Source: Candidatus Krumholzibacteriia bacterium (GTDB lineage: Bacteria; Krumholzibacteriota; Krumholzibacteriia; JAJRXK01). From it: a stretch of DNA of 64,000 nucleotides. Below, piece after piece: positions 17,026 through 50,834 of this stretch (its first letter is position 1; each line of letters opens with the position of its first letter). A model generated the notes under the pieces. The model did not search any database, was not told the origin of the DNA, and worked only from the letters and a program-made list of their open reading frames with translations. The stretch covers positions 1-64,000 of the forward strand of contig JBGPIA010000022.1 of the NCBI GenBank assembly GCA_041484665.1, written 5' to 3'. A program made the translations under genes and the position numbers.

Positions 17026-18450
17026 ATGGACATCGACGAGTTTCGCACACAGGGGCACCGCACCATCGACCGGCTCTGTGAGCTGCTCGCCCAGGTCGAG
17101 CAGCGACCGGTCTTCCCCGCCGTCGAGCCCCGCGCGCTGCACCGGCTGTTCGACGAGCCCCTACCGGACGGCCCGACGCCGTTGGCGGAGATCCTCCATC
17201 AGCTCGACGACAAGCTGCTGCCCTATTGCACCCAGGTGAACCATCCCGGCTACTTCGGCCTGATCACGCCGACGCCGCTGCCGGCCGGGATTCTGGGGGA
17301 TCTGATCGCCTCGGCGCTCAATCAGAACGTGGGCGCCTACTCGATCGGCCCCTCTGCGGTGGCTCTGGAGCGGCGGACCGTGCGCTGGCTGACGGATCTG
17401 GTCGGCTTCGACGCGCGCGCGGGTGGCAACCTCACCAGCGGCGGGACGATGGCGAACTTCATCGGGCTCAAGCTCGCGCGCGATTGGGCCTCCGGCGACC
17501 GGGCGCAGGACGAAGGCCTTGCGGGCCGCTGGGCCGCCTACACCTCGGAGGAGCGCCACGTCTCGGTGGACAAGGCCGCGGATGCGGTGGGCATCGGCCG
17601 CCAGGGCCTGCGGGTGCTGCCCACCGACGATCGGTTCCAGCTCCGTGTGGACGCTCTGGAGGCGGCGATCGCTGCGGACAAGGCGCAGGGGATCCGTCCC
17701 ATGTGCATCGTGGCGATGGGCGGCAGCACCAACACCGGTGCCGTGGACTCCCTGGCCGAGCTGCGCGGGATCGCCGACCGCGAGGGAGCCTGGCTCCATG
17801 TCGACGCCGCCTACGGTGGCGGCATGCTCCTGTCGCACCGCTCTGCGGGGATCCTGCGCGGCGTGGAGCTGGCGGACTCGGTGACCCTCGATCCGCACAA
17901 GTGGTTCTACGCTCCGCTCGACGCCGGCGCGATCCTGGTTCGGGACGGGTCGCGTCTGACGCGGTCGTTCGGCATGCAGCCGGCGTACCTCACCGATCCG
18001 CTGGACGCGGCCAACGAGCGCTACAACTACTTCGTGCACGGGTTCGAGCAGTCGCGGCGCTTCCGCGGGCTGAAGGTGTGGATGGGGCTGAAACGCTACG
18101 GCACGCGCCAGCTCGGCGAGTGGATCGACGCAAACGTCGAGCAGGCGAAACGCCTGTACGAGCGAGCGCGCGGGCATCCCGATTTCGAGCCGGCGACGCC
18201 GCCGCGCATGTCGGCGGTCTGTCTGCGCTACCGCCGCGCCGGGATGGACGAGGAGCGTCTGGCACGCCTGCATGCGCTGGTGGCACGCCGCGTGGAGGAG
18301 GACGGCCGCTTCTGGATCTCCACGACGGTGCTCAAGGGCCGCACCTGGTTCCGGATCAACCCGGTGAACTTCCGCACGCGCCCGGAGCACATGGACGCGC
18401 TGTTCGAGTTGCTCACCGCGGAGTGCGCGTCCGTCGCCGACGCGGCGTAG
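17026..18450 (+). CDS. Group II PLP-dependent decarboxylase (aromatic amino acid/glutamate decarboxylase family)
   Basis: HPGYFG, SGGTMAN, HVSVDKA, GSTNTGAVD, WLHVDAAYGG, DPHKW (PLP lysine), SRRFRGLKVW. Confidence 0.92.
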   Translation: MDIDEFRTQGHRTIDRLCELLAQVEQRPVFPAVEPRALHRLFDEPLPDGPTPLAEILHQLDDKLLPYCTQVNHPGYFGLITPTPLPAGILGDLIASALNQNVGAYSIGPSAVALERRTVRWLTDLVGFDARAGGNLTSGGTMANFIGLKLARDWASGDRAQDEGLAGRWAAYTSEERHVSVDKAADAVGIGRQGLRVLPTDDRFQLRVDALEAAIAADKAQGIRPMCIVAMGGSTNTGAVDSLAELRGIADREGAWLHVDAAYGGGMLLSHRSAGILRGVELADSVTLDPHKWFYAPLDAGAILVRDGSRLTRSFGMQPAYLTDPLDAANERYNYFVHGFEQSRRFRGLKVWMGLKRYGTRQLGEWIDANVEQAKRLYERARGHPDFEPATPPRMSAVCLRYRRAGMDEERLARLHALVARRVEEDGRFWISTTVLKGRTWFRINPVNFRTRPEHMDALFELLTAECASVADAA

Positions 18451-48147: not shown

Positions 48148-48416
48148 GGTCTACCTCCCTCGAAGGTGCGCGAGAACGATGTTGGCCAGGAGTCGATGGT
48201 AGCGCGGTGGCGCCCCGGAGGGAGTCCTGGGAAGCCGATGCCGGTGCCCGTCACCGCAGACGGGCTTTGCACCGCCGCACTAGGATAGCCACGGGCCACG
48301 GGCGCGGGCAACGGTAGAACGCCTGAACCTACGCCCAGGGGGCGCTGAGCGCGATCCTGTGCTACAGTTTGCCGCCGGTCCGCACCGCCGCACCCCATTT
48401 CCCCGGGAGCCGGACT

Positions 48417-49262
48417 TTGGAAGCCGAGCGCAGCGATTCCGCGCAGCAGGTCCTCACCAAGAACATCTGGGAGCTGGAGCAGCGCATCCAGCAGGGCAAG
48501 GGCGATCCCCTCACCCGCGTGGTGCTGATGCGCGCCTATGCCCGCCAGGTGGAGGCGGTGGAGGAGTCCCTGGGGATCCCGCTGGAGCAGCGCAGCTATC
48601 TCAAGGTCAATGAGCGCACGCGCGACGGCGTGCTGCTCATCCACGGCGCCGCGGGAAGCCCGGCGCAGTTGCGGCCCCTGGCGGACAACCTCTTCACGGC
48701 CGGGTTCACCGTCTACGGCATGCGCCTGCCGGGGCACGGCATGCCCCAGAGCGCCCTGGGCGGCACTCCCTGGCAGGCAGCCATCACCGATGCGGAGAGC
48801 CGCTACCGCATCTTGTCCACCTATTGCCAGAAGCTCTACGTCGTCGGATTCAGCTTCGGGGCTGCCGTCGCGCTGCACCTGGAGGCCACCCCCCGCCCGC
48901 GCGCCCTTGTGCTGCTCGCACCGGCGCTCTTCGTGCGCACCAGCCCGGTGATCGGCTGGCTAGTGCGGCTGGGCCTGACCCGCAGCCCTTGGGTTCGCCA
49001 CAAGCTGGGCTGGAGCGCCGAGCTGACCGGGGCGATGGAGTCGGCGCGCAAACAGACCTGGTGGTACGGGCTCCCTGTCCTGGCGGTGATCGCCGAGGAC
49101 GACCCCCGCATCTCCCCGCGCAGCGTCTCGTTCATCCGTGGCCACGCCACGCACACCGGGACCGAAATCGTCCGGTACAAGGACGGCGGGCACGAGTGCT
49201 TCGACGGGTCGCACCGGGAAGAGCTCGAGGCGGCCGCGCTGGCGTTCCTCAAGCGCAACTGA
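48417..49262 (+). CDS. Alpha/beta hydrolase (carboxylesterase-like) with N-terminal helical extension
   Basis: LLIHG, RLPGHG, GFSFG nucleophile, EDD, GGHE. TTG 48417 follows GGGAG, and an extended -10 (TGCTACAGT, 48360-68) argues against the ORF-track start at 48369. Confidence 0.8.
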   Translation: MEAERSDSAQQVLTKNIWELEQRIQQGKGDPLTRVVLMRAYARQVEAVEESLGIPLEQRSYLKVNERTRDGVLLIHGAAGSPAQLRPLADNLFTAGFTVYGMRLPGHGMPQSALGGTPWQAAITDAESRYRILSTYCQKLYVVGFSFGAAVALHLEATPRPRALVLLAPALFVRTSPVIGWLVRLGLTRSPWVRHKLGWSAELTGAMESARKQTWWYGLPVLAVIAEDDPRISPRSVSFIRGHATHTGTEIVRYKDGGHECFDGSHREELEAAALAFLKRN

Positions 49263-49346
49263 TCCGCGGCCGCGTTCCGATCACCGGCTGCCAACTCGTG
49301 CGCCACAGCTCAGCTGTCGGCCCGCGCTCCCACCCAACCTCCACCC

Positions 49347-49735
49347 GCCCCCGCCCCAATCTCCTCAGCTCCGCCACCACGGTCACGCAGCAGCAAAGTG
49401 CTCACAGCCCCCGGCCCCCCGCAATCTCCCCCGCGACACTCCGCAGCCCCGCGGCCAACCACCCGTACCAGCACGCCGTGCACAGGCCCCGGGCTCCGCA
49501 CGGTCCGCTCGCGACGGTCCTCGCCCGCCGGCCGATGAATCCAGGAATCGGCTGGCGGGCTGCGGAGTGTCACTCGCAGACCGTGCGGAGCCCGGGGCCG
49601 TCAGCGTTGTGCTGCTACCAGCAAGTCGCCGCGGGGCGAGGACGTCACGGGGGAGATTGCGGGGGGCCGGGGGCCTGCGGGCGGTCTGCTGCGGCGAGAC
49701 GATGACAGTGGAGCGCAGGAGATTGGGGCGGGGGC
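49347..49735. ncRNA. ~390-nt imperfect inverted repeat (rod-like hairpin); candidate large structured RNA or MITE-like element
   Basis: Perfect stems 49347-365/49717-735 (19 bp), 49407-433/49648-674 (27 bp) and 49485-505/49579-599 (21 bp). Apical stem 49523-536/49547-560 with a 10-nt loop. Confidence 0.6.
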
Positions 49736-49766
49736 CGGACGCTGGGCGGGCAGGGGAGAGGGGCGA

Positions 49767-50570
49767 TCAGTTCTCGCTGCCCTCGGGCAGTGCGAAGGTG
49801 AAGTCGGGGTCGGCTTCGCGCAGGCGCTGGGCCGCCGCCCGCACCGCCGCGAGCGCCGCGGGTGAGGGCTCGTGCTTCCACGCCGAGAATGCATCCAGGA
49901 AGCCGTCGTAGAGCCCCTGCAGGTCCTGCGAGCTGATCGTCACCAGCGCGGGATCGGGCGGCCGTCGCGAGAGGTGGTACAGGGTGCCCTCGCCGATGCT
50001 CTCAGTGAGGTGGAAGTACGAGGAGCGCACCCGGCGCAGGATCGTCACGTAATCGCCAAAGCCGTCTCCCAGCTTGCGCATGGCGATCTCGGGCGCGGTT
50101 GGGCGGCGGCGGAGGCGGCGCAGATTCGAGGACGCGATCAGGTAGTAGACCCCGCCGCGGTGGATGAACTGCTCAGGCTCGTGGTGCGTCAGCGCGTTGC
50201 CGGGGTGGTGCATCCCCTCGACGTGCCGGAAGAGCCCGATCGCCAGCAGCAGGTGGTCGGCGTTGGTCTGGTAGAGGCGGAAACGGAGCCGGTCGTCGTG
50301 GGTGAGCGACGCTTCCCGCGAGAGATCCAAGTCGCTCGTGTGCAGGTAGCGCCGCGCCTCGGCATGGTAGTCGGGCGTGAGGAAACGCGTCAGGAGCCCG
50401 ACCAGGTACACGTTGACGTCCTCATCGTACCCACTCTCGTTGCTGGGTAGCGCCGCCTCCTTGCGCGCCCCCAACAGGCAACGCATCAGGAACTCGGCGG
50501 TCGGGCGCACCGCGGAAGGGCCGGGCTGCGGCCGGTCGGCTTCGAGCGGGTAGTAGCCGTCGAAGAGCAT
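49767..50570 (-). CDS. Conserved-looking hypothetical all-helical protein
   Basis: GGGAGG RBS before ATG 50570, typical codon usage, motifs DEDVNVYLVGLL, ADHLLLAIGLF, GGVYY, KLGDGFGDYVTIL. Confidence 0.75.
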   Translation of the reverse strand: MLFDGYYPLEADRPQPGPSAVRPTAEFLMRCLLGARKEAALPSNESGYDEDVNVYLVGLLTRFLTPDYHAEARRYLHTSDLDLSREASLTHDDRLRFRLYQTNADHLLLAIGLFRHVEGMHHPGNALTHHEPEQFIHRGGVYYLIASSNLRRLRRRPTAPEIAMRKLGDGFGDYVTILRRVRSSYFHLTESIGEGTLYHLSRRPPDPALVTISSQDLQGLYDGFLDAFSAWKHEPSPAALAAVRAAAQRLREADPDFTFALPEGSEN

Positions 50571-50639
50571 CGCCGCACCCCTCCCCAGGCGCCGCGCTCC
50601 GCTTGAGCCAGGTTCGCGAGCCACGTAGCCCACCGGAAC

Positions 50640-50654
50640 GCAGAACCCATGCCA
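50640..50654 (-). promoter_or_regulatory. Candidate sigma54 (-24/-12) promoter for 49767-50570
   Basis: Minus strand TGGCATGGGTTCTGC (GG-N10-GC), about 70 nt upstream of the ATG. Confidence 0.55.
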
Positions 50655-50834
50655 AGCAACGACGACCGACCGGGCGGGAGGGCCCGGGGGCGCTTTGCAA
50701 CGGGGGAGAGCGTGTGGCTGCAATCCGCCCGCCGGAGGCACGCCAGGCTCCGCCCCGGGGCGCCCCGCACCCCCTCGCTCCATTGAAGTTCCGTGGGTTC
50801 CGGCCAGTTCCGCTTCAGGGCGGACTCGTCCCTA

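Follow-up and report, generated by a model that had tools for sequence, protein, structure and literature searches.

About 420 nt of the 504-nt spacer between the stop codons of two convergent genes fold into one rod, and this hairpin is probably a composite palindromic repeat of REP/BIME or REPIN type, non-autonomous and present in six copies. The rod lies in a 64,000-nt stretch of Candidatus Krumholzibacteriia DNA (hereafter the window; source genome G000). It belongs to a repeat family, consists of units nested in flipped orientation, occupies intergenic DNA past gene 3′ ends, is missing from the corresponding site in relatives and combines a core of wide range with locus-specific stems. 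The original prediction had proposed a selected RNA tertiary structure and had given a MITE- or BIME-type repeat as the alternative; the evidence favours the latter. The parts of the rod and its flanking genes are as follows.

48369–49262, + strand: upstream convergent gene, an alpha/beta hydrolase (Pfam Hydrolase_4 and Abhydrolase_6), syntenic in relatives.
49330–49750, no strand assigned: whole rod-like palindrome (composite element), from RNAfold on both strands and from relatives' spacers without the element.
49344–49420, no strand assigned: 5′ arm of the outermost degenerate layer, pairing with 49662–49738 and carrying the first CAATCTCC word.
49407–49437, no strand assigned: 5′ side of the copy-specific stem and foot (..CAATCTCCCCCGCGAC) of the outer unit, pairing with 49644–49674.
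49439–49643, − strand: outer unit (loop A of the original prediction), 205 nt, GTCCTCGCCC...GGGCTGCGGAG, with the inner hairpin at its apex; from the exact-motif census.
49466–49473 and again 49616–49623, + strand: direct repeat TACCAGCA, bracketing the insert within the apex of the outer unit.
49485–49599, no strand assigned: stem of the inner unit, 21 bp perfect (49485–49505 with 49579–49599), enclosing the inner core.
49517–49567, + strand: core of the inner unit (loop B of the original prediction), GTCCTC-GCCCGCCGGCCGAT-loop-ATCGGCTGGCGGGC-TGCGGAG, 51 nt; from the exact-motif census.
49537–49546, + strand: apical loop GAATCCAGGA, 10 nt; from inverted-repeat search and folds.
49662–49738, no strand assigned: 3′ arm of the outermost degenerate layer, a 77-nt, 75% inverted repeat; D2 repeat.
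49767–50783, − strand: downstream convergent gene, 338 amino acids, no Pfam family.

Folding of positions 49330–49750 with RNAfold gave −330.8 kcal/mol on the + strand, compared with a shuffle mean of −211.4 (z −20.1), and −358.4 kcal/mol on the − strand (z −21.7); on either strand, none of 100 shuffles equalled the native fold. The predicted hairpin of ~390 nt was recovered with its stems, 10-nt apical loop and loop motifs (ACTCCGCA at 49438–45, GAGGAC at 49638–43, GGTCCTC at 49516–22 and TGCGGAGT at 49561–68), as were the words CAATCTCC and GGAGATTG, which occur twice per arm and form the direct repeats D1 and D2. From the outside inwards, the arms pair at 49344–49420/49662–49738 (77 nt, 75% complementary), 49407–49437/49644–49674 (31 nt, 97%), 49485–49520/49564–49599 (36 nt, 83%) and 49523–49536/49547–49560 (14 nt, closing the 10-nt loop). 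By eye, the outermost 5′ layer resembles both the stretch between the units and the outer arm of copy C5. The better folding of the minus strand, also predicted, holds in this copy; among the six full copies, the reverse strand folds better in four and the forward strand in two, so that the bias is not a family trait. The adjoining minus-strand reading frame, first given as 49767–50570, extends to 50783. The sole match of the window in Rfam 15 was MIR1151, at 34 bits compared with a gathering score of 90. Neither terminator-like sites (scanned on both strands) nor promoter-like sites were found in 49150–49900, and no T-run follows the hairpin.

The reciprocal complementarity between the two internal loops is real (49435–49456/49550–49571, 22 nt, 86%; 49517–49532/49628–49643, 16 nt, 88%). 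Read with its flanks, loop A is CGCGAC-ACTCCGCA-GCCCCGCGGCC ... GCCGCGGGGC-GAGGAC-GTCGCG and loop B is CGCGAC-GGTCCTC-GCCCGCCGGCC ... GGCCGGCGGGC-TGCGGAGT-GTCGCG; the 5′ half of each loop is the reverse complement of the 3′ half of the other, and the flanks of A and B align. Loops A and B are copies of a single asymmetric unit, GTCCTC-GC stem...GC stem-TGCGGAG, that face in opposite directions, one nested in the other: the inner unit spans 51 nt on the + strand (49517–49567), and the outer unit spans 205 nt on the − strand (49439–49643) and carries the first copy in its apex. The complementarity of A5′ to B3′ and of B5′ to A3′ is automatic, because the two are flipped and nested copies of one unit. 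As read from the sequence, the "loop" of the unit is almost helical, with three pairs in UCC/GGA, flanking G·G and U·C mismatches and a bulged U.

According to the original prediction, the cross-complementary loops would pair with each other, in a paranemic or double-kissing arrangement, a conformational switch or a multimer, within a large non-coding RNA. We regard such docking as very improbable. The cross-complementarity is kept in all six composites of the source genome, where 98% of the cells of the 25 proposed cross pairs are paired, but nested flipped units necessarily produce it; 22 of the 25 pairs are invariant, compensatory changes number zero, and among the three varying pairs one cell is a wobble and three are unpaired (C2a and C10 account for two of these, and the third is at a neighbouring pair). 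The changes in C2a and C10 break a cross pair instead of keeping the pairing. Docking is further contradicted by single units, which have no partner, occur in the source genome and predominate in the other genomes that were compared, and by genus g58, in which the second unit lies beside the first and is not nested. Reciprocal loop complementarity in a long hairpin need not mean a tertiary RNA structure, given that two flipped lopsided hairpins yield the same pattern.

The direct repeat TACCAGCA around the inner insert, a candidate target-site duplication, is, by eye, clear in three of the six composites (C22, C5 and C3) and weak in C6, C2a and C10, and nothing comparable was resolved at the outer ends. 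Contigs from all four sediment DNA runs (X1, X2, X5 and X8) join position 49457 to position 49617 (one contig per run, with a shorter side of only 25 nt), which hints at an outer unit that has a short loop and lacks the 159-nt insert. These contigs have a depth similar to that of the genome. The joined form is absent from the G000 assembly and would therefore be an unassembled locus or come from a related strain. The whole hairpin was spanned by no contig from the four runs; the contigs break inside the repeat.

The source genome (5.45 Mb, 69.5% G+C, 54 contigs, 93.65% complete) contains, by BLAST of the 421-nt stretch, five further full copies that are 83–90% identical over 222–296 nt, together with two partial copies. 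All of these fold into long hairpins.

C5, 112058–112381: full copy (BLAST).
C3, 109399–109753: full copy (BLAST).
C6, 57919–58194: full copy (BLAST).
C2, 305586–305825: full copy (BLAST).
C10, 52789–53010: full copy (BLAST).

A census of exact motifs counted 15 units at nine loci, comprising six composites, each with an inner unit of 50–51 nt and an outer unit of 204–206 nt, and three single units.

C5, 78581–78631: single unit (exact-motif census).
C5, 95013–95083: single unit (exact-motif census).
C2, 732647–732805: single unit with an unrelated hairpin inside (exact-motif census).

The consensus fold of the six composites has 102 pairs, 18 of which show compensatory changes. The columns of the copy-specific stem are strongly divergent among the six copies yet remain paired, with compensatory changes at columns 32–53, and in the stem of the inner unit, C2a and C10 show such changes at columns 121, 123, 126 and 130. 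The loci lie just past gene 3′ ends, five of the nine between convergent and four between co-directional genes; none is inside a gene or between divergent genes.

The site in the window is empty in relatives. The 338-aa gene has a single-copy orthologue in nine of nine family relatives, and in all eight that entered the synteny comparison (G009 was left out) it is the convergent neighbour of the hydrolase gene, with no core motif in between. The distance from stop to stop ranges from 3 nt in G005 and G007 to ~110 nt in G008. Given these short spacers without the element, the whole palindrome, including its outer layers, is an insertion in the lineage of the source genome.

The core motif of the inner unit is also present in other genomes. 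BLAST of the 272-nt core in 40 relatives returned three weak matches only (E 5e-4 to 9e-4). When 185,579 species genomes were scanned for the exact 21-base core, 105 loci matched; 20 of these, in hairpin context, were kept by eye, and the rest, mostly coding DNA, were dropped as chance matches. The kept loci comprise 15 in Gemmatimonadaceae-type metagenome-assembled genomes (MAGs), four in Candidatus Eisenbacteria and one in a Bacteroidota-labelled genome, all of which appear to lie outside the phylum of the source genome. Most of the Gemmatimonadaceae loci represent three orthologous sites that recur across MAGs, each just downstream of housekeeping genes unrelated to those of the other sites.

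First Gemmatimonadaceae site: genes for a TPR protein and a polysaccharide deacetylase.
Second Gemmatimonadaceae site: genes for FtsW/RodA and AccD.
Third Gemmatimonadaceae site: genes for 4HBT and DUF2203 proteins.

Within the phylum of the source genome, we searched 208 genomes with a relaxed core pattern (GTCCTCGC, 20–62 nt, GCTGCGGA) and used the reversed pattern as control. Matches of the pattern and of the control numbered 15 and 2 in G000, 21 and 1 in G124, 25 and 0 in G200, 21 and 0 in G207, 19 and 2 in G191, 18 and 0 in G182, and 15 and 0 in G028, and there were 0–2 matches in many other genomes of the phylum; this range of the family comes from exact patterns only and is therefore an undercount. 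Each lineage has its own stems and apical loops (the apex word GATGAATC recurs in cores of G028), and in genus g10, where G018, G183 and G194 each have at least 20 copies, only ~58 nt are common to the copies. Cores of the G000 type were found in neither of two metagenome scans. Eight loci of other phyla had MIR3444 as their sole match in Rfam 15 (29.8 bits, gathering score 80). A targeted literature search, which covered such repeats in Gemmatimonad* only, found no description of this repeat family. An upstream CUCCG word, which would pair with GCGGAG as a switch, was considered as a universal trait of the family and rejected, as it is present patchily: in five of eight G000 cores, 4 of 19 in g58, 19 of 30 in families f5 and f8, 3 of 17 in Gemmatimonadaceae and five of eight in Eisenbacteria. 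At L099:2417-2478, in a Candidatus Eisenbacteria MAG, a copy of the core apparently lies in frame in the CoaC–CoaB linker of a CoaBC gene and is translated as ~34 extra residues; a frameshift just downstream of this copy, which may be an assembly error, splits the gene.

Comparison of orthologous loci revealed gain and loss of the core and arms that belong to the locus. Locus L140 of G124 is empty in all seven congeners in which both flanks were found. (A 78-nt block that adjoins the element there, L140:1298-1375 on G124:C69, is 93–96% identical across the genus, recurs elsewhere in those genomes and resembles a tRNA gene.) At locus L204, the core is enclosed by a 21-bp stem in G191 and by a different, 19-bp stem in G194; the core-less G182 shows, in the same place, a plain hairpin of 13 bp with a loop of 5 nt, and G183 has another hairpin. 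Locus L209 holds the core in two of nine genomes (G191 and G023), in opposite orientations and with different arms. The other seven have no core, with stop codons 3 to ~60 nt apart, and one of them, G194, matches G191 at 21 of 22 nt across the junction of the right arm. Perfect outer stems of 21–33 bp, which are copy-specific, are found in 14 of 19 cores of genus g58; they contain zero G–U pairs, which points to symmetry at the level of DNA and not to selection at the level of RNA. The G116 copy has a 57-bp stem whose left arm coincides with the final 57 nt of the coding sequence of a 430-aa HDOD-type protein. Alignments with homologues of this protein reach residues 416–426, so that the right arm is native coding DNA copied in inverted form. 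That one arm reproduces a coding end suggests that the palindromes grow outwards from a conserved seed.

The idea that the core always lands in a pre-existing long perfect palindrome was rejected, as perfect hairpins (stem of 14 bp or more, loop of 14 nt or less) number only 27 in the source genome, four of them being the element's own apex; this scarcity makes long ready-made palindromes implausible as a general target. Nor is a pre-existing hairpin required, given that the relatives' spacers at the window locus and at L209 are 3–60 nt long and some are free of hairpins.

The position of the element relative to genes was counted for 30 cores in five genomes, using reading frames of at least 100 codons that end within 100 nt. 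Such an end lay upstream in the sense orientation only at 11 cores, on the convergent side only at five, on both sides at nine and on neither at five. The element thus favours gene ends, with a weak sense bias, and a strict sense orientation of the units was not upheld by this count. Where units lie side by side (four g58 loci, L032 and L033), their order is (+,−) in six of six, each being sense to the nearer gene; all three single units of the source genome are sense to the adjoining upstream gene. Hairpins begin a few to a few tens of nucleotides past the stop codons, and no T-run was seen by eye after the 3′ arms of the 30 cores.

These positions bear on a reading in which the unit works first of all as RNA, in a strand-specific manner and at gene 3′ ends, whether by binding a protein, as a non-canonical terminator or by stabilising mRNA; the composite would then be a two-way version that offers the sense unit to the transcripts of both convergent genes. 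It carries on the lesser part of the original proposal of a non-coding RNA or 3′-untranslated-region element, and is compatible with a REP-type repeat; we consider it possible, with the odds against it as the primary explanation. At least three phyla retain the GUCCUC/UGCGGAG loop, with stems and apical loops that vary, and the orthologous Gemmatimonadaceae sites keep the element beside housekeeping genes whose neighbouring proteins are 77–100% identical. The short distance from stop codons, the (+,−) order of side-by-side units and the sense orientation of the three single units are also in its favour. However, the orientation bias is weak in the unbiased count (11/5/9/5, n = 30), the window has neither a T-run after the hairpin nor a terminator-like site, the 14 perfect g58 outer stems (21–33 bp) are devoid of G–U pairs, one Eisenbacteria copy appears to be in frame within the CoaBC linker, folding energy shows no consistent difference between strands, and no Rfam family matches. 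An old insertion and a functional element that has been retained account equally well for the orthologous Gemmatimonadaceae sites.

With a REP-type repeat as the preferred reading, we compared the element with known families. REPs and REPINs have a conserved GTAG-type tetranucleotide at the foot; by eye, none was seen at either foot of the element in the six-copy alignment or in the 30 cores. The element shares with REPs, BIMEs and REPINs the form of short, imperfect, GC-rich and extragenic palindromes with a conserved asymmetry, the location at gene 3′ ends and between convergent genes in either orientation, the assembly of inverted pairs into larger hairpins and the long retention at some orthologous sites. 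Those of enterobacteria and pseudomonads are described as mobilised by RAYT (Y1 HUH) transposases (PMC3116915, PMC3337134, PMC3333891, PMC3479197). In a transposase search that covered Pfam Y1_Tnp (PF01797, the RAYT/IS200 fold) only and gave matches in control genomes, five of six genomes that bear the element (G000, G124, G208, G209 and G210; draft genomes or MAGs) had zero matches and the sixth, G116, had two weak ones (29–31 bits) on short contigs; completeness is 93.65% for G000, 92% for G124 and 86% for G116. The element differs from the REP-type families in this apparent lack of a RAYT/Y1 gene in five of six bearers and in the unseen GTAG-type foot, and also in pairing that is nested in the source genome and not side by side, in a conserved part that is central with outer stems that are locus-specific, in a core motif common to several phyla and in its low copy number in the source genome (nine loci).

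MITEs have conserved terminal inverted repeats at their ends, flanked by target duplications, and derive from insertion sequences. The element resembles MITEs such as Correia elements, ERIC/IRU and RUP (general reviews are PMC3184786 and PMC2267715) in being small, non-coding, repeated, hairpin-forming and intergenic, with filled and empty sites among relatives and occasional nesting. It is the reverse of a MITE in that the ends vary and the centre is conserved: terminal inverted repeats conserved between copies were not found, as the outer stems vary, and no clear target duplication was seen. Rickettsia palindromic elements, for their part, insert in frame inside coding regions; here this appears to apply to one Eisenbacteria copy (L099, CoaBC linker), and all nine loci of the source genome are intergenic. 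Template-switch mutation at quasipalindromes, or fold-back inverted duplication, gives perfect and locus-specific arms and is a mutational process and not an element family. The perfect locus-specific arms and the arm that copies a coding end resemble its products; here, it would act around a conserved mobile core.

The unit could instead be a folded single-stranded DNA site for a recombinase or nuclease, with its lopsided unpaired centre setting the choice of strand, by analogy with integron attC sites, the attachment hairpin of phage CTX and the ends of IS200/IS605. We consider this improbable. A conserved asymmetric loop between two stems, the occurrence in both orientations, the gain and loss of sites, and AT-rich apical loops in GC stems in several lineages are all in line with such a site. 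On the other side are the missing Y1 transposase in five of six bearers and the all-versus-all BLASTP comparison of reading frames from 30 loci, which found no cassette arrays and no recurring neighbour gene (only orthologous flanks and translations of the element recurred); the R and L box consensus of attC is also absent from the alignments.

On the explanation that we prefer, the composite REP-type repeat, the building block is a short imperfect hairpin in which a GC-rich stem closes an asymmetric internal loop, whose 5′ side reads GUCCUC and whose 3′ side reads UGCGGAG. The ~58-nt core would be the part that is copied from place to place; its targets would be hairpins at gene ends or the DNA next to them, another unit's apex among them. 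Local sequence would supply the outer arms, through an existing small hairpin, inverted copying of one flank or arm-to-arm correction, which would explain why they stay paired yet differ between copies; this origin of the perfect arms is the weakest step, drawn from three or four loci. The conserved lopsided loop may serve as the recognition site of a putative trans-acting protein, and the hairpin, once in place, probably acts as other REP-type 3′ hairpins do, as a barrier to exonucleases or read-through. The missing Y1 gene in five of six bearers, the lack of conserved terminal inverted repeats and of a clear duplication, the low copy number in the source genome, the retention of three Gemmatimonadaceae sites across MAGs, the relatives' spacers without a hairpin and the lack of a contig that spans the whole rod count against this explanation.

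A more far-reaching version, which we put forward as a speculation and think rather unlikely, is that the GUCCUC/UGCGGAG hairpin is the recognition module of a putative, RAYT-independent trans-acting protein common to the phylum of the source genome, Gemmatimonadota and Eisenbacteria, which copies a ~58-nt cassette into or beside 3′-end hairpins and prompts inverted copying of the flank. If so, genes would come to end in long 3′ hairpins tailored to each locus, some of them built from the gene's own coding end, and this would be a new way to make and spread REP-like elements, possibly coupled to RNA 3′-end function. The family places REP-like elements, with neither an Rfam match nor a RAYT partner, in uncultured sediment and soil phyla, where its asymmetric cross-phylum core, its perfect locus-specific stems and the arm that copies a coding end stand out. 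It offers new lineages for testing how REP-type elements spread and what binds them.

Other small palindromes came to light in the same genomes. At L227 (G183:C16, ~17592–17710), the site of a core in G191, a 14-bp outer stem surrounds a CCCCGCGGG...CCCGCGGGG hairpin, and this hairpin within a hairpin may represent another family of apex-nested palindromes in the phylum of the source genome. The L209-site spacer of G194 (L245, G194:C63) contains a small hairpin, AGAGCGAGCC-ATCGCC-GGCTCGCTCT, whose 3′ arm consists of 12 nt absent from G191 and which looks as if made by local inverted duplication. In the source genome, C12:2583-2626 and C1:936784-936827 share a perfect palindrome of 18–20 bp, TGTCGAGTAGCCCCGGCC...; the two are the longest perfect hairpins in the genome and resemble a second small repeat, or else a site of operator or terminator type.
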